15,295 nt of DNA, from positions 1 to 15,295 of the IMG/VR virus record IMGVR_UViG_2778261085_000006, one strand, 5' to 3'. Under the pieces are notes generated by a model. The model made no database searches. It saw only the letters and a program-made list of their open reading frames with translations, and was not told the origin of the DNA. Shown piece by piece: positions 1 to 13,295 of the stretch; the stretch's first letter is position 1; every line of letters begins with the position of its first letter. The position numbers and the translations under genes were made by a program. This stretch comes from a virus (taxonomy: Duplodnaviria; Heunggongvirae; Uroviricota; Caudoviricetes).

Positions 1-30
1 TGTTTCGGTCATATCCTGCTGTTTTAGCAT
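1..30 (-). CDS. 5' end of a minus-strand CDS continuing beyond the window start (begins MLKQQDMTET); product unknown, possibly first late/lysis-region gene
   Basis: ATG at 30..28 (minus) preceded by AAGGGA-like SD; open frame runs off the window edge; sits downstream of the terminator at 151..176. Confidence 0.3.
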   Translation of the reverse strand, partial: MLKQQDMTET

Positions 31-150
31 GTCTTTTTCCCTTTTCTGGTTAACGTGACATACCAATAACTCTTGTCTGAAAAGCCAGCAAGCTGAAAGA
101 CCAGTATTCGCAACCACCAGCGCGTTTAACGTACTGCACCACTTTTCGGG

Positions 151-176
151 CACAAAAAACCCGCTCAATAGCGGGC
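151..176 (-). terminator. Rho-independent terminator closing the two-gene cassette; near-duplicate of the tR'-like terminator at 1066..1093
   Basis: Minus strand reads CCCGCT-attg-AGCGGG followed by TTTTTTGTG; located immediately after the stop of the 177..707 CDS. Confidence 0.7.
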
Positions 177-707
177 TTATTCTTCTTCATTGGTATTAGG
201 CGTCGGCATTTGTCGTGACAGACCAGATGCTCTGCCCATTATGAAAACGGATGCCAATCCTATCAGATCAACAGTAATCAGCGTTCCAGCAAAAACAGTA
301 TTACCTCTCCAGGCAAAGACGGTTGCTATCAGCAAAATTAAAAGCGTTATCGAGTAAGCCATCCATTGACCACGCCTGTCTTTTTTTATTGTTCCCGTGA
401 CCGTTGTTTTCTGCATTTCATGACGATGAGCCTGCTCTTTCTCACTTCTTGCCATTATCCGCTCAGCAGCACCTTCAACTATATCATCGTATTCACGTAG
501 CATTGATGGTGGAGGAAGCGGACCACGGAAATAGGTTTGACTTACTATGGCTCTAAATTGAGGTCGCTCGAGGAGCCGTTCAAGAACATTTGGATTTTCA
601 ACCAGCTCCCCTTCTATCTCTTTAGCCAGCTGTTCTGAACTCTTACATGAATCGTTATCGTGCAGTGGCAAGCTGGCGTTTAAGTTTTCTTGCTCTGAGT
701 CTTGCAT
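177..707 (-). CDS. DUF2335-like membrane protein (soluble N-terminal domain, two predicted C-terminal TM helices)
   Basis: 176-aa ORF; GAGG SD 4 nt before ATG at 707; hydrophobic stretches WMAYSITLLILLIATVFAW and TVFAGTLITVDLIGLASVFIMG; motif FRGPLPPPSMLREYDDIV...EKEQAHRHEMQK resembles the DUF2335 family from memory. Confidence 0.75.
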   Translation of the reverse strand: MQDSEQENLNASLPLHDNDSCKSSEQLAKEIEGELVENPNVLERLLERPQFRAIVSQTYFRGPLPPPSMLREYDDIVEGAAERIMARSEKEQAHRHEMQKTTVTGTIKKDRRGQWMAYSITLLILLIATVFAWRGNTVFAGTLITVDLIGLASVFIMGRASGLSRQMPTPNTNEEE

Positions 708-870
708 ATGGCCTCATACTTGTCCGTAAGTCATCGCCTACAGCCTGGAAATCCGAACGTAAAGCATCAGCGTCAGATTTATGAACAACCAGTGCTGTAT
801 AATCAGTAGCAGGTATCAGGTCTATGATGCTACCTGCGGCGCGCATGATTCTGCGAGTTGAGCGCAACAT
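655..870 (-). CDS. Hypothetical 71-aa protein with Arg-rich C-terminal tail; overlaps the start of the DUF2335-like gene by 53 nt in another frame
   Basis: ATG at 870 preceded by AGGAGGT SD with 5-nt spacer; 216-nt ORF; first gene after the tR'-like terminator. Confidence 0.6.
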   Translation of the reverse strand: MLRSTRRIMRAAGSIIDLIPATDYTALVVHKSDADALRSDFQAVGDDLRTSMRPYARLRARKLKRQLATAR

Positions 871-1065
871 ACCGTACCTCCTTACATAGTTAACATCTTA
901 TAGATCACCTTTGGGGTAATCTTAGAATGAGCCATGCAAGCTGTACAGAATTATTTTATAGCGCACGACTTTCAAATTGGCGCACATAAAAGCAATTCCC
1001 CGTAAAAACACAGCAAACGAAGAAAGCAAACTATGCTGGAATCAACTATGGACTTCACTGTTTTT

Positions 1066-1093
1066 CCGGCACAAAAACCCGCTCGTCGGCGGG
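1066..1093 (-). terminator. tR'-like Rho-independent terminator downstream of the late promoter
   Basis: Minus strand reads CCCGCC-gacga-GCGGG followed by TTTTTGTG; about 40 nt downstream of the AACGAT pause element. Confidence 0.65.
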
Positions 1094-1130
1094 TTGTAAA
1101 AATTATTTTAACGTCAGGCATAATACGCCC

Positions 1131-1170
1131 ATCGTTGTGGAAAATTTACCACAGATTCGGGAAAAATCAA
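1131..1170 (-). promoter_or_regulatory. Lambda-like late promoter pR' with qut/pause element (-35 TTGATT, -10 TAAATT, then AACGAT)
   Basis: Minus strand reads TTGATT-16nt-TAAATT-ttccac-AACGAT-GGG, matching the lambda pR' arrangement as recalled (TAAATT -10, 6 nt, AACGAT pause element); lies directly after the Q stop. Confidence 0.6.
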
Positions 1171-1175
1171 CAACA

Positions 1176-1997
1176 CTATCGCGTTACCTTCTTTAACTGC
1201 CACTCCGCCCATGCCTCTTCAATGTCAAACCGAACCACCAACGTATCGTAAAAGCGCTTCACTGATTTTTTCCACGTATCAAGTGTAATAGCACTCGTCA
1301 CTTTGCATATGGCATTAAATGCCTCCGTTGATGGCAGTCGTTCATAACCACGACCGCCACAACGTTGGCAGTCCCTGATAACAGGCATCCCCCGTTTTTC
1401 CGACTCTTCACGATAAATGGCAACACCACGCCCACGGCAATCTTTACAGGCAGTGGAAATCTCCCCCTTCCCTTTACATTCAGGACAGGAAACTTTCACC
1501 ACCTCCCGGATTTTTTTCCATTCTTCCCAGTAAGACGGATACACACCTTTCGTACACTTTGCCCATACTGGCGGCTTGCCATCCGGATACTGAACCTTGC
1601 TTGTAAAAACTTCGCTTTCAATAAATTTTTCCCCATGGCAACAGGGGCACTGCTTTTTACTCGCAGCACTACGGGCATAATCCTCAAAAGCATACGAAGC
1701 CATAATGCGCATCACTGCCGGTTTTATTTCTGCCGGAAGTTTTCTTAACGCCGCCACACTATCGCACTGACTTAATGCATAATCTGCCAGTAATTCTGTT
1801 GCCCGCACTCTGTCATTCATACTGATGCCCATTTTCCCCAGGAACGCAGAAAATCCCATCTCAGCCCGGTTCTGTGTCATGCCCTGTGCAGCCATCACAT
1901 CAGTGATACTCAGTGCATCTTTTGATGTCGAGGCGGATGCATCAGTCAGGCCTGGCGATTTCGGGGAATAGTATTTCGGTAAATCTTCCAGCTTCAT
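1176..1997 (-). CDS. Late-gene antitermination protein Q (zinc-ribbon rich Q family)
   Basis: 273-aa ORF with several CxxC pairs (CPCCHG, CPECKGKG, CKDCRGRG, CQRCGGRG); ATGA start/stop overlap with upstream rusA; followed by pR'/qut/tR' module. Confidence 0.8.
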   Translation of the reverse strand: MKLEDLPKYYSPKSPGLTDASASTSKDALSITDVMAAQGMTQNRAEMGFSAFLGKMGISMNDRVRATELLADYALSQCDSVAALRKLPAEIKPAVMRIMASYAFEDYARSAASKKQCPCCHGEKFIESEVFTSKVQYPDGKPPVWAKCTKGVYPSYWEEWKKIREVVKVSCPECKGKGEISTACKDCRGRGVAIYREESEKRGMPVIRDCQRCGGRGYERLPSTEAFNAICKVTSAITLDTWKKSVKRFYDTLVVRFDIEEAWAEWQLKKVTR

Positions 1998-2368
1998 TTT
2001 TTGACCTGCCCGTCATGCATTATTTCGTAAATCTTCACGCCCAACCGACCACCTGGGACAAGCTGACCGCGCACAATATTGATTTCATCAAACTGCTCGT
2101 CGTCGATAAGCAACCCCGCATGCGTCAACGCATCCAGCGGTGCTTTCAGGATATTGTCCAGGTCACGACGGCGTTTATCCGGCGGCTCTGCGATAACCGT
2201 TATCGCCAGCCTTCCGGACAGGTTTAATTTCAGCCGCTGCTGGCGAACGATAAGCGCCACATCACAGCGATAACGCTTACCGGCTTCAGATATAAAATAT
2301 GTGCTGCCACGACGTCGCCAGTAAGTGTTCACCGTCGGCGGGTAAGGCAAAACAAATTCTATCCCCAT
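1994..2368 (-). CDS. rusA: Crossover junction endodeoxyribonuclease RusA (Holliday junction resolvase)
   Basis: 124 aa; motifs LPYPPTVNTYWRRRG, PDKRRRDLDNILKAPLDALTHAGLLIDDEQF, PGGRLGVKIYEI align with E. coli RusA as recalled; AGAGG SD 7 nt upstream of ATG. Confidence 0.9.
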   Translation of the reverse strand: MGIEFVLPYPPTVNTYWRRRGSTYFISEAGKRYRCDVALIVRQQRLKLNLSGRLAITVIAEPPDKRRRDLDNILKAPLDALTHAGLLIDDEQFDEINIVRGQLVPGGRLGVKIYEIMHDGQVKK

Positions 2369-2380
2369 CAGTAACCTCTT

Positions 2381-3430
2381 TTATCCGAGTACGCCAGTTG
2401 CAAAGGCGTGATCAAGAAAACGAAAAATTAAATCAACCTGAGAACCATGCTTTTCTTCGAACGCCTGCGGATCTGCATGAAGTTCATTGTGATGTTCCCG
2501 GCACAGCGGCAACGTAAAAATATCGTGAGCTTTTGTCCCCATTCCGCCCTGACCGTGACCAATCAGGTGATGGGGATCGTCTGCTGGCTTACCACAACAC
2601 GTACACGGCTGTTTCTTTACCCAGCGCGTGTATTTCTCATTCACCCAGCGGCGACGTTTAGGCCGCTTCATGAATGATTCCGGTGACTCCGGATCAACGG
2701 CAATGCTGACCACCGTCTTTTCCTGTGGTGCGTTCTGTTGCTGGTGGGCGTGAGGCAACGGCGCAAAATTTTTTGTGCGCTGCTTCAGTATGCTGGTGGC
2801 GGTCCGCTCTCCCTGTACGATGTCGCTTTCGCGGTACACCGAGCGGATTTTTTCCGCACGCAACCCCAGAGAACGACGTAATACTGACTCCGGTAGCGCG
2901 TCCGCTACCTGATTGCAGACCGCCCACCAGGATAATTCAGCCAGCGACAATTCCCGCTCCTGCGTGCCATTCATTGCGTGACGGATGACGTCAATCATCC
3001 ATGCTGACAGGTTTTGATGAGCAAGCTGCCCGAGTGATTCGGAAGTCTGGTCACGCAGCTGGTTGTCGCAGTGCCAGCACAACACCATCGCGCCGGTACC
3101 GTAACGATGTATGACGGTTTCACTGTGGTGATAGTCACCATGAGGCCACTGGCAGGATTTAACGTGGCGCAACAGCCAGTCAGAGAGTGCGCCAGCACCA
3201 CCAGCGGCACGAATCACACGCTCATCGCTGAAAAATGGCAGTAATGATTTATCTTCCGCCAGCGGCTGGCGAACGGCAGGAACAACTCCGGACGGCAAAC
3301 ATCGCATGCTTTTCGGTTCCGGTTCCACCAGCACTCGAGGGTTATGAAATACCTGCATGGATTCACGGCCCGGCTTAAGGACCACCAGCCCAAGTTCCGG
3401 TACCGGAACAGGTCGAAGTAATACCCGCAC
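2381..3430 (-). CDS. DUF968 (YdfU-like) prophage protein with C-terminal HNH-like nuclease motif
   Basis: 349-aa ORF, GTG start 1 nt after the stop of the upstream ORF with GGAGGT SD; C-terminal CTCCGK...DPHHLIGHG...LPLCREHHNELH resembles an HNH/zinc-finger nuclease signature; same position as ydfU in Qin. Confidence 0.8.
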   Translation of the reverse strand: MRVLLRPVPVPELGLVVLKPGRESMQVFHNPRVLVEPEPKSMRCLPSGVVPAVRQPLAEDKSLLPFFSDERVIRAAGGAGALSDWLLRHVKSCQWPHGDYHHSETVIHRYGTGAMVLCWHCDNQLRDQTSESLGQLAHQNLSAWMIDVIRHAMNGTQERELSLAELSWWAVCNQVADALPESVLRRSLGLRAEKIRSVYRESDIVQGERTATSILKQRTKNFAPLPHAHQQQNAPQEKTVVSIAVDPESPESFMKRPKRRRWVNEKYTRWVKKQPCTCCGKPADDPHHLIGHGQGGMGTKAHDIFTLPLCREHHNELHADPQAFEEKHGSQVDLIFRFLDHAFATGVLG

Positions 3431-3431
3431 G

Positions 3432-3704
3432 TTACCTCCAGATGCGTTGCTGGAATGTGCGGGATGAACGCGGTGGGCGTTCAGAATAAGGGAGCCTGAC
3501 TGAAATTATCCAGTGTCGGAAGTCAGGACTGAGGTCTTTCTGAAACTCATACCCACGTCTGCGGTAGTTCTGAATCAGCCATTCGGCCTGTTCTTCAGTG
3601 CATGGATCATGCTGGAACCAGTCGGTTTTAAATGCGCGTGAACGCCGCCATTGCCTGCTGGCAGGGGCGGTATCAGAATTGTTAAGTTTTGTGTAATGCA
3701 CCAC
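3432..3704 (-). CDS. Hypothetical 90-aa protein, tightly coupled to the DUF968 gene
   Basis: GTG start with GGGGA SD about 8 nt upstream; stop 1 nt before the DUF968 GTG; no recognised family. Confidence 0.45.
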   Translation of the reverse strand: MVHYTKLNNSDTAPASRQWRRSRAFKTDWFQHDPCTEEQAEWLIQNYRRRGYEFQKDLSPDFRHWIISVRLPYSERPPRSSRTFQQRIWR

Positions 3705-3764
3705 TACTATCCCCGTAATGGTGCGACAGATGTCAGTTGTTCAGGCTGACTTAACCAGTATAAT

Positions 3765-3959
3765 TTAGTCTTCTTTAATACAGAAGTGGCTAACAGAATC
3801 CATGTGCGCTTCTTTACTGATCAAAATGGCATCAGGTGGTAGTGGTATTACAACAAAGTCGCCATTCTCAAAAGTTATCACTTCATAACTACCAGGAACA
3901 GAAAGCGTGGCAATTAATTCCTTATCGTTCATAACCAAAATCCCATGAACTTTAAACAC
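3765..3959 (-). CDS. Hypothetical small protein (about 55 aa if started at ATG 3932, 64 aa from GTG 3959)
   Basis: AT-rich small ORF between the hok terminator and the 90-aa ORF; start site ambiguous and SD weak. Confidence 0.3.
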   Translation of the reverse strand: MFKVHGILVMNDKELIATLSVPGSYEVITFENGDFVVIPLPPDAILISKEAHMDSVSHFCIKED

Positions 3960-4091
3960 ATCCCCTTAAGGGGGCCATCCCTCTTCTCCCTGCGCGCTAA
4001 CTAAGTAATATGATTCTATTTACCCCAAACGGCCCCTCAAGAACCGCACCCAATGGAGTACACAAAAAGCTAATCAACTACGCCGCACAAT

Positions 4092-4112
4092 AAAAAAACC
4101 CGCCGAAGCGGG
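4092..4112 (-). terminator. Rho-independent terminator downstream of hok
   Basis: Plus strand AAAAAAA-CCCGC-cgaa-GCGGG, i.e. on the minus strand a 5-bp GC stem followed by a U7 run. Confidence 0.7.
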
Positions 4113-4186
4113 TTAAGTGCGGGTGCGTTGAGGATGCCTGACACATCATAGGTGGCGGGGGATAAAAATCCCCCGCCAGGTCACCC

Positions 4187-4342
4187 TTACTCCTCAGATT
4201 CGTAAGCTGTGAAGACAGTGACCTCCGTCTGGCCGGTTCGGATTCGTACCTCGCAGAGGTCTTTCCTCGTTACCAGTGCCGTCACTATGACGGTTAAACA
4301 GATGACGATCAGGGCGATTAACATCGCCTTTTGCTGCTTCAT
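4187..4342 (-). CDS. hokD: Hok/Gef-family type I toxin (HokD/RelF-like small membrane toxin)
   Basis: 51 aa MKQQKAMLIALIVICLTVIVTALVTRKDLCEVRIRTGQTEVTVFTAYESEE, near-identical to HokD/RelF as recalled; AAGGAG SD 9 nt upstream; perfect 9-bp hairpin 10 nt after the stop. Confidence 0.9.
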   Translation of the reverse strand: MKQQKAMLIALIVICLTVIVTALVTRKDLCEVRIRTGQTEVTVFTAYESEE

Positions 4343-4680
4343 AGCCAGCTTCTCCTTGCCTTTCGGCACGTAAGAGGCTAACCTACATGTGTAAAGCATG
4401 AAATTGGCCTCAGATTAATGTTAAGCGTCTTGCCGGACGCGTAATGTTAACTGGGGCTTTTCTCTGTCTGCCTTACAGTGGCATGCCCGAGGCAGACAGC
4501 CTCAAGCACCCGCAACAATCTTACCGACACCGATAAGAAAACGCTATTTTTTATTGCCAGAACCTTCTGCCCAGGCTAATGTATCCGCGTCAGAACGGCG
4601 CAATGCGCTCGCCTGAGATACGTTTACTTGTCATTGGTGGCAACAGATAACGGCAATTGTTATTTCTGTTTGTTTCCTTC

Positions 4681-4714
4681 AAAAACCCCGGACCGTCAAT
4701 CCGGGGTTTTTGTT
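4681..4714. terminator. Bidirectional Rho-independent terminator separating the DUF4406 gene from the hok locus
   Basis: AAAAA-CCCCGGA-ccgtcaa-TCCGGGG-TTTTTGTTT: 7-bp stem flanked by an A-run and a T-run. Confidence 0.7.
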
Positions 4715-4993
4715 TGCTATCCCCAGCGGCAAATCGAATACACCACCACCGCCATTGCAATTCCTGCCGTTGTGAATGCTTCAGGCCAAGTCATCGCAAA
4801 ACATCCTTCACACTTACCAGCCCGTTCTGTTTCAGATACGCCATCGCCTGTTAAGCCTCACTCGCCAGTATTTATGTTCACACGATCAGGGATAAATATG
4901 CCTTTACTCTTAAATGTCGGATTTCAATATTCGAGATTTCTTGCCAACGCCGCGCACGGTTCTATCTTATTACCATTAATTTGGCACTTTGAC

Positions 4994-5293
4994 TCACTCA
5001 CTGTTATCCTCCTGGAAAATAACCGCATGCCCCAGCTTCTCCGCCAGTGCCAGTTCTGCCTTAGCACCTGCTGACCGCTGCCAGCCTTTCAGCATGTAAA
5101 TCGCATCCACGCAGCGTATCATCGCCATGCAAATATCCATGTAGTGTGGCTGTGTCAGCCCATCCGGAAGTACTGCCGGGTTTAAGACTGTATGCCCTTC
5201 ACGTTTCAGTTCCTCTTCCGCCTTGTGAAACGCCTCACGGTTGAAATTTTTATATCCCGTCATTGGGCCGGCAATATAAACTCTCACCCTCAC
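4994..5293 (-). CDS. DUF4406 (nucleoside 2-deoxyribosyltransferase-like) prophage protein
   Basis: N-terminal VYIAGPMTG motif typical of DUF4406; GTG start at 5293 or 5287 (GGAG SD before 5287); 4-nt overlap with upstream gene. Confidence 0.75.
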   Translation of the reverse strand: MRVRVYIAGPMTGYKNFNREAFHKAEEELKREGHTVLNPAVLPDGLTQPHYMDICMAMIRCVDAIYMLKGWQRSAGAKAELALAEKLGHAVIFQEDNSE

Positions 5294-5544
5294 TCCTGAA
5301 CTCTCCTGTCGAAATAAACGTAGTTATTCACTGTGCGCAACGGCATTCCAAATTTTATGGCGATTTCTCTCCTGGAGACGCCACGCTGATGCAGTTTTCG
5401 CGCCAGCTCAATATCGCTCTGAAGATATTTTGCTGACTGGTGAAAATCACCACGCAGAATCAGACTTATTCCCATCTCCCGGGCTTTCGTCCTGACCGCC
5501 GCCTCACTACGACCAATCAGACTGCCGATGCTTTTTACCTTCAT
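5290..5544 (-). CDS. Small HTH DNA-binding protein (84 aa)
   Basis: ATG at 5544 inside a longer GTG-initiated frame; C-terminal RGVSRREIAIKFGMPLRTVNNYV looks like a helix-turn-helix; SD weak. Confidence 0.55.
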   Translation of the reverse strand: MKVKSIGSLIGRSEAAVRTKAREMGISLILRGDFHQSAKYLQSDIELARKLHQRGVSRREIAIKFGMPLRTVNNYVYFDRRVQE

Positions 5545-5600
5545 TGTTCCCGCGCACTGCCGAAGAATAAGGATTTCAGCCCGCACCCAGCCACGCCATC

Positions 5601-6362
5601 TCACTTCACATCCTCTCCGGAACAATTCATCTGCCGTATAATATCCCGGTGCTTGTTCAGCTCCTGCAGCGCGGCGCAGACACGTTCCCACTTCCGGATA
5701 TGACTTTTTGCCCGGCGCAGTTCACGGTTTGCCATATGTAGCGATGGCAGCATTACATAGTCGGTATGTTTTTCGGTGAACGATGGCAGTGACCGCACAA
5801 TATCCGCCACCGTTTCTGTTTTAATTTCTTCCTGTGTTGCCGCTTCCTGTACCGGTAATGCAACCCCCGCTGGCTGAGGAAAGGCTTTACCATCAGTTTC
5901 CGCTACCGATGCGGCTTTCAGTTCTGCTGGTAAATTCTCGCCTGGCATGCAGTAACGAAATTTACCGTTCTGATTAACGCGTGCCAGCCGCCCTGTTGAG
6001 GTTACTACCGCCAGCGTGGAAGCAACCTTGCGAATGCTGACACCGAACTTACCCGCCAGTTCCTCACACGTTTTAGCCCCCTCCTTGCCGATAAACTCAA
6101 TCATCATGTCAGCGGTAACTTTTTGTTCGCCCACCCCGGTTAGCACATCCGGTGCTTCAGATTGTACTGGCCGCTCTTCGGTTACCCCGGATTCACCTTC
6201 ACCAGCCAGAAACCAGGTATGACCTGTTTTATCAACGACGCCATTTCTTTTGAGTTCCCACAGCTCGTTCAGCACTTCTTCACGACTGATATCAAGTCGC
6301 GCGGCCAGTTCCACCGACGTGGCTTTTCCCATTGCGTTCAGTGCGTCAAAAACAGTCTCCAT
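5601..6362 (-). CDS. Prophage protein with N-terminal winged-helix-like domain (DUF1627-like)
   Basis: ATG at 6362 with GGGAGG SD 8 nt upstream; [43 protein letters not shown] resembles DUF1627 from memory. Confidence 0.6.
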
Positions 6363-6384
6363 TAAAATTTCCTCCCGGTAAAAA

Positions 6385-7130
6385 TTACTTCTCAATTCCT
6401 GGCTGGATGACATTCGTGCGCCAGCTCTCCCAGTTAAAATTCACCCAGCGACCACCGTTCATGGTCATGCGGTCCATTACGCGCTCGCCAAGCAGCGTAT
6501 TCATCGCCGTATGGTTCAGGTTCGTCAGCATCCCGACGCTGTGCATCGAGGCCGTTCTGCGATCGACTATCTGGTTCAGAGTGACCTGTTCGTTACGCGT
6601 ATCCCGCTGCATACCGATTTCATCCAGGATAAGCAGGTCAACCTCACACAACCCCTGCAAAAATTTTTGCCCGAGTTTTTGTTGTCGTAGTTGCCGTGTA
6701 ACGCCAGCATCACATCCGCCACCGTCACCACAATCATGCTGCGACCTTTCGCCAGAAGATGGTTGCCGATGGCTGCCGCCAGGTGATTTTTTCCGGTACC
6801 CGGCTTACCGCTGAACACAAAATTTGTGCACCAGGTCATCAGCTCGTCCGCAATGGACTTCGCCTGGCTGAGTGCATGACGCTGTCCGTCGATCTGCACC
6901 AGGTAATTCGCAAACGAACATTTCTGGTGCAACGGCTGGATACCGGAACGATTCAGGAATTTTTCCACCCGTAACTGGAGATTCTGGCGGTTAATTTCCT
7001 CACTACGCTTTCGCCCTTCCGCAAGCTGCCACCCCCGCCACTCGTCCACTGTCCGGTACGGCGCGGTTACATGCTGCGGGGCCAGCTTACGGATACGCTC
7101 AAGAACACCACCTGCCGCAATATTTTTCAT
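6385..7130 (-). pseudogene. DnaC-like replicative helicase loader, disrupted by a single-base frameshift in an A5T5 homopolymer near 6659..6668
   Basis: ORF 6576..7130 carries DnaC N-terminus and Walker A (FSGKPGTGKNHLAAAIG) but ends in nonsense; overlapping ORF 6385..6660 in another frame carries the DnaC C-terminus (DLLILDEIG...NQIVDRR...LGERVMDRM); frames join across GGCAAAAATTTTTGCAG. Confidence 0.8.
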
Positions 7131-7136
7131 AACCCG

Positions 7137-8246
7137 TTACCCCCTGAATCCCGGCGGAATTTCGGTGTCCGGTTCAGAAATGTGATTCACACAACGCTGG
7201 TTGTTCGTGCCGCTTACCGGAATCAACCAGGGGTTTTCAAAATTCCGGTCCGGTCCAAAAAACGTCGTCGCTCGCTGAACAAATTCCGTTCCCGTTTTCC
7301 CGGTAGCCGCCAGGTATCTTGCATAACGCCTCACACCATCCATCATGGCCTCTGGTGGCACCCCCTCGCGTAATCTGGCCTTCCAGGCACTGAATGCGGA
7401 TTTCTTCGGGTTTGCCCCGGCACGCAACGGGTATTCCCGCCAGACCTGTTCGAACACATCCGGATAATCCACCCGTCCCACAGGCTGCCCGGTGTTTTCC
7501 GGGACTACCCGATCGGCTTCCCGCTGAATGGCGGAATCGGCTTCAGGCTGCTGCAGTTGGTGTGATTGTTCCGGCCTTGCGGTCATCGCCTGCTGCACAG
7601 CTCCCGAATCGGCTTTCAGCGCATACGCTGAATCGGCTTCCGGTGTCGTGCCTGCTGGCTGACCAGAATTTACGGTCTGAACATCCCCTGCCTGGTTCAT
7701 GGTGTTTTTTTCGCCATGAACCATAGTGTTTTTGTCCTGTTCCTGTTCTTTCTCCTGCTCCTGTTCTTGGCTTCGAAGCCCCTTAAAAGCCCCTTCGAAG
7801 CCCCTTACAGAATTTCGGCTATTATTCCGCCTCACATCCAGATGGAAATCCGTTTTATATCTGTCGTAAAACGCTGACAGAAAAGCGTTTTCAGGTAATG
7901 ATGCATACTCATTCCTGACACCTGCACAACGGTTATCGCCAGGCTTCAACGTTTCCCCAACCTGCCAGGCTGCCATTTCATGGACCCAGACCATCTCTGC
8001 ATCATGGTCATAGCTACAAAAACCAGCTTCAACAGCCCTTTTAAGCCCCTTTGAAGCCCCTTCCAGACCAAGCCCGGTTTCATGAGCAAGGTATAAAACT
8101 GGCAGGTAATACAAACCCAGCATATTTGCGTGAGGGGATGTCATCAGGTAAAAAGCAACAACTTGCGCTTCTGCACCCGCCTTTCTAAGTTCTCTCCCCG
8201 TTTCTCCCAGCCAGAATCGCGGAGAAACTTTTGCGTAATCACGCAT
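7137..8246 (-). CDS. Phage replication initiator (O-like) with internal repeat/linker region
   Basis: 370 aa from ATG 8246 (GAGGT SD); immediately upstream of the DnaC-like gene; central low-complexity QEQEQEKEQEQ plus PEADSA repeats; C-terminal YPDVFEQVWREYP...AWKARLREGV resembles phage replication-protein C-terminal domains. Confidence 0.7.
   Translation of the reverse strand: MRDYAKVSPRFWLGETGRELRKAGAEAQVVAFYLMTSPHANMLGLYYLPVLYLAHETGLGLEGASKGLKRAVEAGFCSYDHDAEMVWVHEMAAWQVGETLKPGDNRCAGVRNEYASLPENAFLSAFYDRYKTDFHLDVRRNNSRNSVRGFEGAFKGLRSQEQEQEKEQEQDKNTMVHGEKNTMNQAGDVQTVNSGQPAGTTPEADSAYALKADSGAVQQAMTARPEQSHQLQQPEADSAIQREADRVVPENTGQPVGRVDYPDVFEQVWREYPLRAGANPKKSAFSAWKARLREGVPPEAMMDGVRRYARYLAATGKTGTEFVQRATTFFGPDRNFENPWLIPVSGTNNQRCVNHISEPDTEIPPGFRG
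7511..7639. repeat. Four iteron-like copies of GAATCGGCTT inside the O-like gene (candidate origin-binding sites)
   Basis: Copies begin near 7511, 7534, 7606 and 7630 (spacing about 23, 72, 24 bp); followed by a T-rich tract at 7695..7770. Confidence 0.55.
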
Positions 8247-8324
8247 GGCTACCTCATCTGGTGCCGAAGCTTCCTCCGGATATAATCTGTGGTTCCCAAT
8301 CGACAGAACCAGAGGAGGTTCGAC

Positions 8325-8780
8325 ATGTATTTTTTGAAAAGCCTTTATCAGGCTCATGTATTAAATGTTGCAGCAACAAACCGCTGGTGTAACAGCCCCG
8401 AAATGCTCCCGGATTACAGAGCCTGGCTGCGCGCAGAAACATACCTTCGTCTCGACATATTGATTAGCGAACTTCAAAAAGAGACTGCATCCATTCATAA
8501 CCTTCAGGGTATCGACGCTGTTCGCATTCTGGTATCGCGCCATAGTGCTCTCTCAATAATTGAAGTGCGTCATCTCTCTTTTTCTGAACTGATTTTCTTG
8601 CTTCAACCAGCTCTGGAATCAGCGAATATCCCACCGGAAGTGATCCAATACCCACCTCATGTTGACGAGCAGTTACAAGATGTGCCATACAACCAGCGTG
8701 CTGGATTGACTCCCTGCTCAGAGGCTGAATGGGATCACTCTCTGCTGAAGAAATACCAAGATTTGTATAATCCTCAATAA
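8325..8780 (+). CDS. Hypothetical antisense-oriented protein (151 aa) with near-consensus SD
   Basis: GAGGAGGT at 8312..8319, 5-nt spacer, ATG at 8325; overlaps the minus-strand ORF 8464..8973 by 317 nt, so at most one is likely fully real. Confidence 0.3.
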   Translation: MYFLKSLYQAHVLNVAATNRWCNSPEMLPDYRAWLRAETYLRLDILISELQKETASIHNLQGIDAVRILVSRHSALSIIEVRHLSFSELIFLLQPALESANIPPEVIQYPPHVDEQLQDVPYNQRAGLTPCSEAEWDHSLLKKYQDLYNPQ

Positions 8781-8973
8781 GCCCGGCACACGCTTCTGCA
8801 TCAGCCAGCTTTATTCTGGTTTCCTTGCGCTGTTCTCTGGCTGACAAACGCCAGAGCAGCGCATTAACTTTATGTATCAACCACTCTGCCAGCTCCACAT
8901 CAGATAAACCGCCACGCCAGATGTGCGGACTGTTTTCGTAAACGCTCAGTGTCAATTTTTTGTCATTACTCAT
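8464..8973 (-). CDS. Hypothetical protein (169 aa from ATG 8973) between the YdaT-like and O-like genes
   Basis: Same strand as the surrounding operon; E. coli-like codon choice (CTG, CGT, GAA frequent); SD weak; conflicts with the antisense ORF 8325..8780. Confidence 0.45.
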   Translation of the reverse strand: MSNDKKLTLSVYENSPHIWRGGLSDVELAEWLIHKVNALLWRLSAREQRKETRIKLADAEACAGLIEDYTNLGISSAESDPIQPLSRESIQHAGCMAHLVTARQHEVGIGSLPVGYSLIPELVEARKSVQKKRDDALQLLREHYGAIPECEQRRYPEGYEWMQSLFEVR

Positions 8974-8986
8974 ATTTATTACCCAA

Positions 8987-9412
8987 TTAATGCACAGCCA
9001 GAGTGTTTCCTGCCGGGCCACCACGATTCATCTGATCGAACAGAACTATCGCTGATGCAACTAAATCATCGATATCTTTCACCAGCCGTTCCTGCGTCTC
9101 CACCAGCTCCCGAAAATAAGCGGAACTGTGGCTGCGCATTCGGGCCACCAGCGGAGGCGGCATCGCTTTTTCGATAGCTGGTAACAACGCCTGAATTTTT
9201 TTAACCGCGTCAGGGGTATCTTTCTCCAGCCAGCGGAAAATTTTCTGGGTATTACGGCCCAGGGCTTCCGGATGGCTGTCGTCGAACAGTTCAGGAAACG
9301 TCAGACCCAACTCGAAATAAGCCCGGGTTATTTCAGCTGCCGGAACTTTTTCACCGTCCGGATATGCCCAGGCATTCATCGCCATGCGGATGTGTTCATG
9401 CTTGATTTTCAT
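8987..9412 (-). CDS. YdaT-like (CII-position) protein
   Basis: 141 aa; GGAG SD 8 nt upstream; 17-nt overlap with the upstream Cro-like gene; same position and size as ydaT in Rac. Confidence 0.65.
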   Translation of the reverse strand: MKIKHEHIRMAMNAWAYPDGEKVPAAEITRAYFELGLTFPELFDDSHPEALGRNTQKIFRWLEKDTPDAVKKIQALLPAIEKAMPPPLVARMRSHSSAYFRELVETQERLVKDIDDLVASAIVLFDQMNRGGPAGNTLAVH

Positions 9413-9671
9413 GAATCAACTCCGGTGTATTTGATGTGTTAGCCTTATCTCCATCAGGCACCCCGTCAGTTGGATTCGGGTATAAATCTGGTCGCAATTC
9501 ATGAGGAGTCACCCCAGTTGCAATATAAATTTGACGAACCCGTTCTCCCGTCGGTACTCGACCATTGTATTCATTTGCCCATTTGTGTATTTGAGACGGC
9601 CAAGCCCCTATTGCACGCCCTAGCGGACGAATACCACCAGCAATCTTTATTGCTTTGTCCAATGCTGTCAT
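9396..9671 (-). CDS. Cro-like HTH regulator (YdaS/DicC position)
   Basis: 91 aa; GGAGG SD 4 nt before ATG; divergent from the repressor gene; N-terminus MTALDKAIKIAGGIRPLGRAIG resembles YdaS-type Cro-like proteins. Confidence 0.7.
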   Translation of the reverse strand: MTALDKAIKIAGGIRPLGRAIGAWPSQIHKWANEYNGRVPTGERVRQIYIATGVTPHELRPDLYPNPTDGVPDGDKANTSNTPELIHENQA

Positions 9672-9693
9672 ACAACCTCCAATTCAACTAACC

Positions 9694-9770
9694 TTAACAA
9701 TTGTTCACTTAAAACGAACATAAGTCAACACCTCGAGGAATTGTTAGTGTTCACTGAACGGTTATAATTG
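9694..9770. promoter_or_regulatory. Divergent immunity promoter/operator region with two operator sites of form TTGTT(C/A)-N9-GAAC
   Basis: Operators at 9701..9721 and 9741..9761; plus-strand promoter -35 TTGTTA (9741..9746) and -10 TATAAT (9764..9769), 6 nt from the repressor ATG; minus-strand promoter -35 TTGACT and -10 AACAAT overlapping operator 1. Confidence 0.6.
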
Positions 9771-9774
9771 CTAA

Positions 9775-10164
9775 ATGGACATGAGAAAAAAGCAATACGA
9801 CACCCCGCTAGCAGAAAGGTTAGATACGATCTCGCAACAGCATCATTTAAGTGGTTCAGATTTAGCGCGTATCGCTGGTGTAGGTCGTTCATCAGTCAAC
9901 GCATGGAAAAAAAGAGGAACAATCAGTAAAGATTCCGCAGCCAAAATTGCGGAAGCTACAAACGTTTCCCTTTCTTGGCTACTGACAGGAAAAGAAGAGA
10001 CAAATAGAGAGGCACTTGATGATGACGAGAAGGCCCTGCTTGATGTTTACAGAAGCCTGCCACCTGTAGAACGTAGAAATATGCTGGCAGCTTTTCAAAT
10101 GCGACTTCAAAAACTGACCGAATTTTACTCAGAATACGTCGACCCAATAACAAGACAAAAATAA
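9775..10164 (+). CDS. DicA-like XRE-family HTH repressor (short CI analogue without peptidase domain)
   Basis: 129 aa; N-terminal HTH (SGSDLARIAGVGRSSVNAWKKRG); C-terminal ALLDVYRSLPPVERRNMLAAF resembles the DicA C-terminal region; divergent to the Cro-like gene. Confidence 0.8.
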   Translation: MDMRKKQYDTPLAERLDTISQQHHLSGSDLARIAGVGRSSVNAWKKRGTISKDSAAKIAEATNVSLSWLLTGKEETNREALDDDEKALLDVYRSLPPVERRNMLAAFQMRLQKLTEFYSEYVDPITRQK

Positions 10165-10185
10165 TTCTTTATTTTACAGAATCAT

Positions 10186-10209
10186 ACCGCCGCAAGGCGG
10201 TTTTTTTTT
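10186..10209 (+). terminator. Rho-independent terminator after the repressor gene
   Basis: ACCGCC-gcaa-GGCGGT followed by a T9 run. Confidence 0.8.
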
Positions 10210-10230
10210 GCTTTTCGCGCACTCATTATG

Positions 10231-10259
10231 TTGACATTTGTTCACCTTGGAAGAACAAT
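10231..10259 (+). promoter_or_regulatory. Promoter of the leftward (dicB-operon-like) transcript with a third repressor operator
   Basis: -35 TTGACA (10231..10236), 17-nt spacer, -10 AACAAT (10254..10259); operator TTGTTC-N9-GAACAA at 10238..10258 matches the two sites in the divergent region. Confidence 0.55.
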
Positions 10260-10333
10260 GTATTCCATCAAAGCACAACGGTGCGACAGGTCTTAGTTCC
10301 GCTACCCCGGCGTTAAGGGGAAATGAGGTCAGC

Positions 10334-10486
10334 ATGGATACTATCGATCTTGGCAACAGCGAATCTCTGGTATGTGGCGTGTTCCCCAACCAGGACGGTA
10401 CGTTCACCGCGATGACGTATACCAAAAGCAAAACGTTTAAAACCGAAACTGGCGCGCGTCGCTGGTTAGCCAGAAACACTGACTGA
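10334..10486 (+). CDS. YdfA-like small protein (50 aa)
   Basis: GAGGT SD 4 nt before ATG at 10334; MDTIDLGNSESLVCGVFPNQDGTFTAMTYTKSKTFK resembles Qin YdfA as recalled; first gene after the DicA-repressed promoter. Confidence 0.65.
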   Translation: MDTIDLGNSESLVCGVFPNQDGTFTAMTYTKSKTFKTETGARRWLARNTD

Positions 10487-10497
10487 TGAGGTTGACG

Positions 10498-11136
10498 ATG
10501 GAATTTAAAGATTTACCAATATCAATACAGGAAATGGCCGCTGATGTGATTCGCTCGCAACTGGCGCGGAACCCAATGATATTAGTAGATAAAGTGTTCA
10601 TCATAAATTTATCAAATCATGTCCGCAATTCTTTTACCGGACTGTATTCAGATTCGTTCACAAACAATCATTGTGTAGAAAATAAAGCAAAGCCCATTGC
10701 AGAAACGATAACGCAAAACATCAATACGAAACAAACCGAAGAAGAAATTGACCAGTTTACCCGAGATACTGGCTTAAAATGCAGGAAAGAAAAATCGCCA
10801 TATGCGGGGAATATGTTTGTTTATGACAACCTTATCCGAATTCGTGGCGAAATTCCGACTGAATACCTAGCAAGAATTCACCGGGCATTACTTAAAAATC
10901 TGGAAACGGAAGTATTTGATGGCAATACCAACGGCTCCTTCGTGGTGTCAACTCTCGCAAAAGAGTGGGATACAGATAATCGCTGGAATGTTGCCACATG
11001 GTTATTCAGCAACAAAGCTGCTGCCCTGGAAGCTGCGGCCTGTATTTGCGACCTGCTAAGGACAGACCGCAAATACAACCTGGATGTGTATAGCTATATT
11101 TATGCTGAACACTATCCGCTATGGATTAACTGGTAA
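10498..11136 (+). CDS. Hypothetical 212-aa soluble protein, AT-rich, unknown family (candidate accessory/defence moron)
   Basis: GAGGT SD 5 nt before ATG at 10498; 1-nt TGATG overlap between the ydfA-like stop and an upstream in-frame ATG; GC visibly lower than flanking genes (about 38% in the first 60 nt counted by hand); no TM segments or recognisable motifs. Confidence 0.7.
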   Translation: MEFKDLPISIQEMAADVIRSQLARNPMILVDKVFIINLSNHVRNSFTGLYSDSFTNNHCVENKAKPIAETITQNINTKQTEEEIDQFTRDTGLKCRKEKSPYAGNMFVYDNLIRIRGEIPTEYLARIHRALLKNLETEVFDGNTNGSFVVSTLAKEWDTDNRWNVATWLFSNKAAALEAAACICDLLRTDRKYNLDVYSYIYAEHYPLWINW

Positions 11137-11346
11137 TTACAAAGCTGCACCAGCAGGGCCACGGCGACCAGCGCCACGATTGTAATCAATGATGCCATTA
11201 TAAAGCGCATTATTTAATTTATCGTCGAATGCCGATTCTGTGAGCCCTAGCACTGAATGAGTTTTTAATAACCCTGATTGCCTGAGTTGATTAACCAGGC
11301 ATTCAATCTGTTTTTCAATAATCGGATGTATTGGCTTGTTTGGCAT
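11137..11346 (-). CDS. Hypothetical 70-aa protein, convergent with the 212-aa gene
   Basis: GGAGGA SD 5 nt before ATG at 11346; its stop codon directly abuts the stop of the 212-aa gene (TAATTA); Gly/Arg/Ala-rich C-terminal tail. Confidence 0.45.
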   Translation of the reverse strand: MPNKPIHPIIEKQIECLVNQLRQSGLLKTHSVLGLTESAFDDKLNNALYNGIIDYNRGAGRRGPAGAAL

Positions 11347-11669
11347 TTTATCCTCCATTGAAGTTACTGGTTGAGAATGGAGACCACACGTGACAGCGTG
11401 TTGTCGTGCGCCGGACACGGATAAGAATCCGGCACTGACAGTTTACTGAAAGAATATATCCCTGAAAAGTCAGGGCATAACTCGAAAGCGCACGGCGGAG
11501 GTGTCTTTTCCTTAGAAGGCTTGTCGTTAGATTTCTTCGACCGTGCGCTTCCGGTTGTGGCACTCCGCGAAATGGCGCGGCGGTAAGTATGGCGGGGTTA
11601 TCCTTACCCCATTAGTGGCACCGGGTTGTCAGGTTGACCATACGCTTAAGTGACATCCCCGCTGCAACA

Positions 11670-11735
11670 ACCCATGTTGATTACCTTTTGGCGGGTATCC
11701 GTTTTTTGTTTTCCCTTGTGATACCCGCCCTTTTT
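11670..11735 (+). ncRNA. DicF-like small RNA candidate (processed sRNA ending in an intrinsic terminator)
   Basis: 10-bp perfect stem GGCGGGTATC / GATACCCGCC with a U-rich 20-nt loop, followed by CTTTTT; 5' flank UUUUGGCGGGUAUC resembles DicF UUUGGCGGUAUC as recalled; sits in a non-coding stretch of the DicA-repressed operon. Confidence 0.4.
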
Positions 11736-12001
11736 AAAGTGAATTTTGTGATGCGGTGAATGCGGCTAAGCGCACGCGGAACAGTTAAAAAGGACAGTTG
11801 ACATTCGTATTGGTTCTTATGGGTGGGTTATCTGTATCCGGCGTTAATTGTTAACTGGTTAACGTCACCTGGAGGCACCAGGCATCGCATCAACAAAATT
11901 CACTTCAGTGATGAAAGGTGAGAGAAAATGTTGAATGTAGCTATTGAAAACCAGAACGGGTGGAATTATAGTGCACCTGCACCTCATAAAACGGGTGCCG
12001 G

Positions 12002-12212
12002 GATTTGCACCCCGATGATCACTAGAGCGCATAACCGCGCCAAAGCGGTTTTTTTATGCGTAAAGCGCAGCCACATTCAGATTATGGTGGGGCGTATGGG
12101 GCCGTTTTCGGGCGGGCCGGATTCTCTAGTGACCGGTAGTGCAAACCCTGTACGTCTCACCACCCATGAGATTTGCACCTACGGTGGTGAGTTTACCAAC
12201 TTATCACTAGAG
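12002..12212. repeat. Three copies of a bipartite motif TTTGCAC-N-TCACTAGAG (direct, inverted, direct) upstream of the Rha gene
   Basis: Copy 1 at 12004..12027, inverted copy CTCTAGTGA...GTGCAAA at 12124..12146, copy 3 at 12172..12212 with a longer internal spacer. Confidence 0.5.
12034..12055 (+). terminator. Possible intrinsic terminator/attenuator in the Rha leader
   Basis: ACCGC-gccaaa-GCGGT followed by T7; stem is only 5 bp. Confidence 0.4.
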
Positions 12213-12221
12213 GCTGCCATC

Positions 12222-12776
12222 ATGGCTACTATCCCTACCCTGTCTCACCCTGACGTAACCATCGAAAACGGTCGCGCTATCACTACGTCTGTTGCGATCG
12301 CAGAGTTCTTTGGCAAACGACACGACAACGTGTTACGTGCCATCGCAAACATTGAATGCTCAGAAAAATTTAACGCCCTCAATTTTGAGGACGTAACGTA
12401 CACCGACGCCAAAGGCGAAAAACGTCCAATGTACCAAATCACCAAAAACGGCTTCGTTTTCCTGGTGATGGGCTTCACTGGCAAAAAAGCCGCTGCATTC
12501 AAAGAGGCCTACATTGCTGAGTTCGACCGCATGGAGGCAGAGCTGCGTCAGAATAACACCCCACCAACTGACAAAATAATTCCTGGCGATGGTCGCACTC
12601 TGGTTGTTCGATTCGACGAACACGGCAATATCAAATTCACCGAAACCGTTCCTGATGGTGCAATGGTCTGTACTCTGGATACCTTCCAGTTTTATCTGGA
12701 GAAACAGGGATGGACACTTGTAAACCGGAGCGCAATTAGAAACATGACTGTCGAACAATTGCTGCGTATTAAATAG
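12222..12776 (+). CDS. Rha-family phage regulatory protein (antirepressor-like)
   Basis: N-terminal AIAEFFGKRHDNVLRAIANIECSEKFNALNFE...MYQITKNGFVFLVMGFTGKKAAAFKEAYIAEFDRME matches the Rha N-terminal domain; the in-frame extension back to 11928 contains a terminator and repeats, so was not taken as coding. Confidence 0.75.
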   Translation: MATIPTLSHPDVTIENGRAITTSVAIAEFFGKRHDNVLRAIANIECSEKFNALNFEDVTYTDAKGEKRPMYQITKNGFVFLVMGFTGKKAAAFKEAYIAEFDRMEAELRQNNTPPTDKIIPGDGRTLVVRFDEHGNIKFTETVPDGAMVCTLDTFQFYLEKQGWTLVNRSAIRNMTVEQLLRIK

Positions 12777-12821
12777 TTTTCTGGAATTTACTTCATATGA
12801 CTAATTATTATGGAGATAATT

Positions 12822-13043
12822 ATGATTGCTCATCACTTCGGAACTGATGAAATACCACGTCAGTGTGTGACTCCAGGCGATTATGTTCTTCATGAGGGCA
12901 GGACATATATTGCATCGGCAAACAATATTAAAAAGCGAAAACTTTATATTCGTAGCCTGACCACAAAAACATGCATAACTGGCTGCATGGTTAAAGTTTT
13001 CCTCGGTCGTGATGGATTACCTGTAAAGGCTGAGTCATGGTGA
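12822..13043 (+). CDS. Small 73-aa protein at the position and size of Rac KilR (identity unverified)
   Basis: GGAG SD 6 nt before ATG at 12822; lies between the Rha and RecE-like genes. Confidence 0.5.
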
Positions 13044-13295
13044 TAGACAGGAAAATAAAATGCGCTTACCTCCTTTGCAATAAAGGATTTGAAGAAAGCA
13101 AAAGTATTAAAAACCACTTCATTTCATGCGTGGCGTTATCCAAACAACGGAAATGAAAAAAAAATATTGTAGTGAAATCTGTGCCGAAAAAGACCAGATG
13201 GCACATGAACTTTAATTAACTGACTGAACGAAACTGAATTTATGCCTGCAATGGCAGGGATTCGCTCAGCCTTAAAATAGTTATGAGGTTTATCA

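Follow-up and report, generated by a model that had tools for sequence, protein, structure and literature searches.

Morons, in the definition of Hendrix and Juhala, include HK97 gene 15 and lambda bor and lom, and in Shiga toxin (Stx) phages the Stx cargo lies between Q/PR'/tR' and the lysis genes. The stretch of DNA analysed here (the window: 15,295 nt, positions 1 to 15,295 of the IMG/VR virus record IMGVR_UViG_2778261085_000006, Caudoviricetes) carries a phage accessory cassette ('moron') in this same slot, and the cassette harbors a widespread gene pair: a small gene for a basic protein of 71 aa, followed by a gene for a membrane protein of the DUF2335 family. Judging from sequence comparison, region 154..1051 (all coordinates are window positions unless a locus is named) is a mobile accessory cassette directly downstream of tR' of a lambda-like prophage. 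Related prophages have either an empty site or other cargo at this point, which makes the cassette a genuine insertion and the slot a variable one. Like the lambdoid morons, the cassette is an extra transcription unit that is missing from collinear relatives, lies between late genes, has a promoter-like site and terminator of its own, and encodes a small inner-membrane protein. Three phages (of Morganella, Yersinia and Klebsiella) carry the pair immediately ahead of the tape-measure gene, the place that HK97 gene 15 occupies, and there it has the same orientation as the tail operon in which it lies. Unlike those morons, it consists of two coupled genes rather than one, its promoter in the donor lineage has a prophage-repressor operator, which argues for lytic-phase expression, and the pair occurs also in non-phage chromosomal loci of many phyla. 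Compared with the Stx cargo, it occupies the same slot on the same strand as Q/PR'/tR' and the late genes, so that its transcription probably depends on Q read-through of tR' after induction; its genes, however, are unrelated to the toxin, it has its own terminator and no tRNA genes, and no secreted product is predicted.

Two prophage systems with paired components may also be compared. Tai/Ati of phi80 consists of a prophage defence gene and a self-immunity/counter-defence partner in the late operon (PMC11364771), and BstA/aba is a prophage defence system with paired self-immunity (PMC8585504). The DUF2335 pair is like both in being a prophage accessory locus whose two components are linked in function and which lies in or beside the late operon controlled by Q, but it shares no sequence similarity with either. 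Tai and Ati are, moreover, divergent and differently timed, whereas the DUF2335 genes are predicted to be co-transcribed and are sometimes fused. T4 Imm and the RI/RIII antiholin pair are similar by analogy only, as small membrane and soluble proteins that act in lytic growth at the inner membrane; they differ in architecture and are not known to be homologous.

The insertion was recognised in a survey of 5,426 complete E. coli genomes. The cassette itself, counted at 80% coverage or more, was found in none of these, and one or both of its flanks match in 2,134. At the empty site, seen in strain RMDEC465 and many others, the flanks are 381 bp apart and enclose a single terminator, the gene order being Q, terminator, a 65-aa gene, DNA methyltransferase and holin. 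In RM9088 and its relatives, the slot is filled instead by an unrelated gene for a 237-aa multi-pass membrane protein (WP_024166254; L002 3204-3917), bracketed by two copies of a ~75-nt terminator region, the distal one of which has a broken stem. A first-pass annotation of the window, made from the letters alone, had suggested comparing related prophages for presence or absence of the cassette between the terminator copies; the comparison shows the empty site and the alternative cargo, both in collinear E. coli prophages. The pair is not invariant in its lineage, and no match to a holin, spanin or endolysin was found for it in Pfam or PHROG.

Junctions were inspected in 60 rows, taken at even intervals from the ranked list of 2,141 matching records. 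About 14 of the 60 have the empty site. About 29 share the Q side alone, with homology ending at 1073, the end of the T-run of the Q-proximal terminator (T1), and about 17 share only the side of the 65-aa gene, with homology ending at 175-177, the 5' edge of the hairpin of the distal terminator (T2). Since homology breaks at the edges of T1 and T2, the terminator is a mosaic junction between prophage modules, and terminator hairpins are mosaic breakpoints among these prophages. A DUF2335 protein identical to that of the window occurs in 169 blocks of the assembly collection; it lies between Q and the 65-aa gene in every locus retrieved, and the prophages that carry it differ in their lysis and terminase modules.

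All genes of the cassette region are on the minus strand, in the order DUF968 gene, rusA, Q, T1, 71-aa open reading frame (ORF), DUF2335 gene, T2. The first-pass annotation had described a two-gene cassette directly after Q and between two terminators, with a Shine-Dalgarno (SD) sequence ahead of the 71-aa ORF, a DUF2335-like membrane protein gene, a 53-nt overlap of the two genes in different frames, and an Arg-rich tail encoded over an acidic N-terminus; each of these was found in the current study. The features are listed below.

3430..2381, minus strand: DUF968 gene
2368..1994, minus strand: rusA
1176..1997, minus strand: Q antiterminator gene, 273 aa (PF03589 Antiterm, E 3e-49; phrog_127)
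1143..1170, minus strand: late-promoter-like site, candidate PR' (TTGATT, 16 nt, TGgTAAATT), conserved in L001 and L002
1073..1094, minus strand: T1, the proximal intrinsic terminator, equivalent to the recipient tR' (ACCCGC-CGACGA-GCGGGT, then TTTTT)
1052..1094, minus strand: repeat copy 1, the terminator plus ~17 nt past the T-run, from the direct-repeat search and alignment
960..1051, minus strand: insert-specific spacer of ~90 nt, which separates T1 from the segment common to the cassette and Salmonella L104
919..947, minus strand: candidate cassette promoter (-35 TGTACA at 947..942, 17 nt, -10 TAAGAT at 924..919)
905..919, minus strand: orphan operator TTACCCCAAAGGTGA of epsilon15 type, overlapping the -10 element (consensus TTACC-N5-GGTAA)
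655..870, minus strand: 71-aa ORF, small basic protein, with SD AAGGAGGT at 883..876
177..707, minus strand: DUF2335 gene, 176 aa, with its own ATG and SD GAGG at 715..712
154..178, minus strand: T2, the cassette intrinsic terminator (AAGCCCGCU-AUUG-AGCGGGUUU and a T-run), beginning inside the DUF2335 stop codon
133..175, minus strand: repeat copy 2, from the direct-repeat search and alignment
1..30, minus strand: start of the next late gene, for a 65-aa protein (by name a TrmB-family regulator in phiP27), cut at the window edge

The candidate PR' is a putative site read from the letters; it matches the consensus at 8 of 12 positions and falls below listing by the promoter scan. The spacer between T1 and the 71-aa ORF is 202 nt, and the DUF2335 ORF is in frame +1 relative to the small ORF. 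The G+C content is 0.42-0.47 in the cassette, 0.44-0.50 in Q and 0.55 further upstream. No Rfam family was found in 1..1300. A 46-aa ORF (50-190, minus strand) that spans T2 and the intergenic region is unsupported and most likely spurious.

The fold of T2 is clear (-14.1 kcal/mol, z = -3.2) and that of T1 less so (z = -0.6); a simple terminator scan listed neither on the minus strand. Direct repeats in 1..1300 are limited to the terminator regions (133-161 vs 1052-1080, 79%; 155-175 vs 1073-1093, 81%), and the terminator repeat is ~42 nt in length, ~80% identical, with one indel. This is more than the generic likeness of one terminator to another, because ~17 nt past each T-run (GTGCCnGAAAAnnnGTG) are common to the T1 and T2 regions, and because both copies align with the single copy of the empty site. 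The match of T1 to the left flank of the empty site extends to ~17 nt beyond the T-run, and T2 matches the empty site from the hairpin rightwards. As T1 shares the left flank and T2 the right, the ~42 nt are present twice.

A Salmonella prophage (L104) has the same pair immediately downstream of an unrelated Q (PF06530/DUF1133), the proteins being 90% identical to those of the window. At the DNA level, identity with the window is 90% or more over a stretch that starts ~90 nt ahead of the small ORF, takes in both genes and ends with the T2 hairpin and T-run, after which it decays, and T2 is therefore part of the cassette. In most other contexts examined, a GC-rich hairpin with a T-run is also found within ~25 nt after the DUF2335 stop codon. 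The first-pass annotation had viewed the two terminators as an insertion with duplication of tR'. A discrete insertion with ~42 nt present twice is upheld by the comparison, but T2 is not simply a copy of the recipient tR', because it accompanies the cassette into the Salmonella prophage with its unrelated Q. The likeliest history is that the terminator of the cassette recombined with the similar tR' of the recipient, the other end being joined just past tR'; recombination would have been anchored in terminator homology, leaving the ~42 nt duplicated. The spacer at 960..1051 has no counterpart in the empty site or in Salmonella L104. Transfer of a cassette between phage types (as judged by the two Q families), with terminator hairpins at the junctions, appears to be new as far as the literature searched shows.

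The relationship between the two genes extends far beyond this prophage. In the 95 DUF2335 loci examined, 75 of them from genomes of many phyla, the small-protein profile matches just upstream of DUF2335 in 78. The small protein is encoded by a separate ORF in 55 of these 78 loci, with the DUF2335 ORF in frame +1 in 41 and in frame +2 in 8, while 6 have both ORFs in one frame with a stop codon between them. In the other 23, which are of the Xenorhabdus type, the small protein is fused into the DUF2335 ORF, and no more than its N-terminal third is retained. Further in-frame fusions are P0073 and P0074 (one of them confirmed on its contig), P0136 and P0264. The small ORF overlaps the start of DUF2335 in phages of Klebsiella, Escherichia, Pseudomonas, Arthrobacter, Leptospira, Lactococcus and Lacticaseibacillus. 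The pair adjoins integrases in MD8 and Gusanita, and it follows the lysin gene in Lactococcus proPhi6. The genes that flank it are unrelated between genomes (147 families among 150 neighbours), and the pair is therefore a self-contained two-gene unit. The natural fusions argue for products that work as one complex, and the small protein and the DUF2335 protein most likely act together. The near-constant small partner, and its fusions to DUF2335, are new as far as the literature searched shows; a small upstream partner is absent from the descriptions of the family that were found.

The Xenorhabdus form deserves a separate description. In Xenorhabdus and one related metagenome-assembled genome (L034-L056, ~23 loci), a fused gene of ~160 aa, in which the N-terminal third of the small protein is joined to the DUF2335 core, occupies an apparently conserved place in the chromosome. 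Where Pfam was applied to the locus, the fused gene is divergent from a repressor gene of CI/LexA-like type (helix-turn-helix plus peptidase S24) and is followed by serine-hydrolase genes.

The 71-aa ORF is, by its pattern of substitution, a real gene. Compared with a 70%-identical copy in E. coli 4/4, the dN/dS ratio over the non-overlapping codons is 0.14, which indicates purifying selection. Within the overlap, the ratio is 0.11 when read in the frame of the small ORF, and the DUF2335 N-terminus encoded by the same bases diverges freely. The net charge of the protein, +8, resides entirely in residues 51-71, and this tail is encoded over the acidic N-terminus of the DUF2335 protein (net -7 for residues 1-60). 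The family has the motif GSILDLxPxxDY ... SDxxALRSDxxxVGxDLxxA. A profile search of 1.84 billion representative proteins at E <= 0.001 returned 2,285 members (representative clusters), mostly of 58-80 aa. No relative of the small protein was found in Pfam, NCBIfam or PDB, and its AlphaFold2 (AF2) model consists of two helices without a recognisable fold (predicted local distance difference test score, pLDDT, 78.6).

Annotation of the small gene is patchy. It is unannotated in the RefSeq record of E. coli 4/4 (L003 5415-5630) and in the GenBank records of Klebsiella phages RAH1 (L004 3787-3984) and BUCT711 (L018 2140-2490), and gene callers have missed it in several draft assemblies. In one representative, P0132 (266 aa), the small-protein domain forms the C-terminal end of an otherwise unmatched hydrophobic protein of 200 aa, rather than adjoining DUF2335.

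The 176-aa protein belongs to PF10097, DUF2335 (E 9e-20, 70.7 bits against a Pfam gathering cut-off of 25), and to phrog_3996, which has the PHROG category 'moron'. It has two hydrophobic segments (~115-133 and 138-157), the first preceded and the second followed by basic residues, a pattern that fits a C-terminal membrane hairpin with both ends in the cytoplasm. The predicted cytoplasmic part includes a conserved helical region in which GPLPPP, ExEQxxRH and RGQW are invariant in the alignment, and such invariance suggests that the protein is more than an anchor in the membrane and has a specific activity or interaction. The AF2 model is all-helical (pLDDT 64.8), with a long helix that runs into the first membrane segment. 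Foldseek found no match to it in PDB at E <= 0.001, and profile searches of the PDB sequences with the DUF2335 protein and the small protein found nothing. PF10097 is described as a 'predicted membrane protein' and carries no assigned function, and a literature search for this accession yielded only an unrelated mention. DUF2335 has been called a phospholipase or Tle1-type lipase effector domain (10.1101/2023.07.16.549128, PMC6267618, PMC13600407). In those papers the lipase label is apparently a slip for DUF2235, which could mislead annotation transfer.

Expression of the cassette can be predicted from the sequence ahead of the small ORF. The TAAGAT element is kept before homologous pairs in L104, L018, L024 and L026. 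Upstream of homologous pairs, the palindrome TTACC-N5-GGTAA comes directly after this element. In Klebsiella phage BUCT711 (L018), a -35 element TTGACG lies 16 nt upstream of TAAGAT, compared to TGTACA at 17 nt in the window. The window site scores 8/12, below the threshold of the promoter scan, and is probably the cassette's own promoter. As for the palindrome, it is evidently the operator of an epsilon15-type prophage repressor. Chance alone would give 0.54 copies in the epsilon15 genome, which in fact contains 15, and these sit at features annotated in RefSeq as 'repressor' binding sites, including clusters that flank the repressor gene; epsilon15 itself is without the gene pair. The same operator precedes the pair in L003, L005, L018, L024, L025 and L104. 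Epsilon15-like elements that bear the pair are the E. coli 4/4 prophage, EC.W1-9, BUCT711 and loci in Rahnella and Pseudomonas lundensis, and in such elements the operator is also found ahead of neighbouring accessory genes, such as a BRO-N gene. The window has a single copy (allowing up to 1 mismatch), at 905..919, and no homologues of the neighbouring epsilon15-type accessory proteins were found in it. An epsilon15-type operator on this cassette is new as far as the literature searched shows.

An autoregulatory operator of toxin-antitoxin type was also considered for the palindrome, and was rejected because the same 15-mer is the multi-copy repressor operator of epsilon15, a phage that lacks the pair. 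In the epsilon15-like loci, the BRO-N proteins are similar in their C-terminal part to the 85-aa gp19-like proteins (L003 6013-6723 and 7039-7296; L005 273-530 and 1913-2605), and the BRO-N and gp19-like genes are each preceded by the repressor operator.

The cassette would have originated in an epsilon15-like phage and been repressed there in the lysogen, as the repressor operator overlaps its -10 element in such phages, and infection or induction would have turned it on. In the lambdoid host, polymerase modified by Q would read through T1 after induction and transcribe the cassette, and T2 would keep unmodified polymerase from entering the late genes. The cassette's own promoter, with no cognate repressor and a weaker -35 element, may add some constitutive expression, which T2 would keep within the cassette. 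The operator thus suggests expression in lytic growth rather than in the lysogen; the position of the Xenorhabdus gene, divergent from the S24 repressor gene, and the positions in tail operons also fit expression outside lysogeny. The overlap of the two genes would couple their translation, and the products would assemble into a single complex at the cytoplasmic side of the inner membrane. In lytic growth this complex would alter the state of the membrane to the advantage of the phage, possibly by excluding superinfecting DNA or by tuning the timing of membrane permeabilisation.

An epsilon15-derived cassette, transcribed by Q read-through and encoding a membrane complex used in lytic growth, is considered the best explanation as a whole, with a probability of roughly 0.55. 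Confidence is high in its structural and evolutionary part. The functional part, a two-protein inner-membrane complex that is made in lytic growth and alters the membrane for the phage, is proposed with low confidence. Several points weigh against this explanation. The ~90 nt at 960..1051 match neither the empty site nor the Salmonella prophage. The promoter was assigned from conservation and a consensus match of 8/12. The AF2 models, of low to moderate confidence, gave no match to a known fold. The positions beside integrases (MD8, Gusanita) and after a lysin gene (proPhi6) are typical of genes expressed in lysogens, and the non-phage chromosomal copies (Arenicellales, Xenorhabdus) suggest a function that is not tied to phage infection.

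The fusions and the repressor-controlled promoter of the donor point away from two rivals, an autoregulated toxin-antitoxin pair and a moron expressed in lysogens, both of which we regard as unlikely. In the former, a toxin-antitoxin-like or abortive-infection module, the DUF2335 hairpin would be a membrane-damaging effector that the small protein keeps in check until something such as phage infection sets it off. The overlap of two genes of which the small one leads, a self-contained unit with no conserved neighbours, a patchy spread over prophages and some plasmids, and the opposite charges of the small-protein tail and the DUF2335 N-terminus are all as expected of such a module. Searches with the PADLOC-DB 2.0 defence models, however, gave only scattered matches to unrelated families (E 0.003-0.03, in 1-3 of 41 members) and none that was significant or credible. 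Pfam, NCBIfam and PDB profile searches found no DNA-binding domain in the small protein, nor is the two-helix AF2 model a DNA-binding fold, and the upstream palindrome belongs to an epsilon15 repressor rather than to an autoregulatory circuit. Stable fusions and the seemingly vertical inheritance in ~23 Xenorhabdus species would also be unusual, though fused forms are known. A classical moron, for its part, would be expressed constitutively in the lysogen from its own promoter, its membrane protein blocking the entry of incoming phage DNA as for HK97 gp15. The variable slots of the pair (after Q, before the tape-measure gene, beside integrase, after lysin), its promoter-like site and terminator, and the PHROG category are consistent with this, and an operator that has no cognate repressor in the lambdoid host could leave the promoter constitutively on. 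The same operator should, on the other hand, keep the promoter off in lysogens of the epsilon15-like donor, and the -35 element of the window is degraded relative to that of L018. Exclusion proteins specific to a receptor or to injection usually have a narrow range, whereas this pair occurs in many phyla and in loci outside phages.

A lysis accessory function, in which the N-in, C-in hairpin and its soluble partner modulate hole formation, seems improbable. The topology is like that of class II holins, the cassette lies in the late region upstream of the lysis genes, and the pair directly follows the lysin gene in Lactococcus proPhi6. Neither protein, however, matches a lysis family, most phage copies are far from lysis genes, chromosomal copies have none nearby, and these prophages already have full sets of holin, endolysin and spanin genes. 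Still less probable is a programmed +1 ribosomal frameshift, by which the two ORFs would be one gene giving a fusion like the natural fused forms. The +1 frame of the second ORF in 41 of the 55 loci with separate genes, and the existence of in-frame fusions, would suit it, but the frame is +2 in 8 loci and the same, with a stop codon, in 6, and a universal +1 frameshift was rejected on account of this variation (+1, +2, 0). The DUF2335 ORF has, in addition, a GAGG and an ATG of its own, 655..707 shows neither a slippery motif nor a stop-codon shift motif, and the overlap is constrained in the frame of the small ORF only.

Other regions of the prophage also carry regulatory elements. An Rfam match to the sok antitoxin RNA (4340-4511, minus strand, 115 bits) has a Hok/Gef gene at the corresponding position in related loci, which together indicate a hok/sok module in the early-right region. 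At 11979-12167 (plus strand), isrK (68.6 bits) lies beside the C4 antisense RNA (78.1 bits), and both lie over the 5' portion of an ORF (11928-12776) that encodes Ash and Rha domains; this looks like the antisense-controlled antirepressor arrangement of P1/P7. The immunity region (8987-10164) has a CI-type repressor gene (9775-10164, plus strand) that is divergent from YdaS-like (9396-9671, minus strand) and YdaT-like (8987-9412, minus strand) genes.

The slot between Q/tR' and the late genes is the site of the Shiga toxin genes, so that its other cargo bears on how lambdoid phages acquire genes. The cassette described here provides a concrete case of movement between unrelated phage types, probably from epsilon15-like to lambdoid phages, with terminator hairpins as the module junctions. 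It also shows that DUF2335 genes are nearly always accompanied by a small upstream partner, mostly missed by annotation, whose family comprises at least 2,285 representative clusters, and it delimits a two-gene unit that is directly clonable. Speculatively, the pair may represent a new two-component system, found in many phyla, that acts at the inner membrane when a prophage repressor is lost (infection, induction, SOS). If this doubtful but possible reading holds, it would be a new effector of superinfection exclusion or abortive infection, or a controller of permeabilisation, with terminator hairpins serving as recombination linkers.

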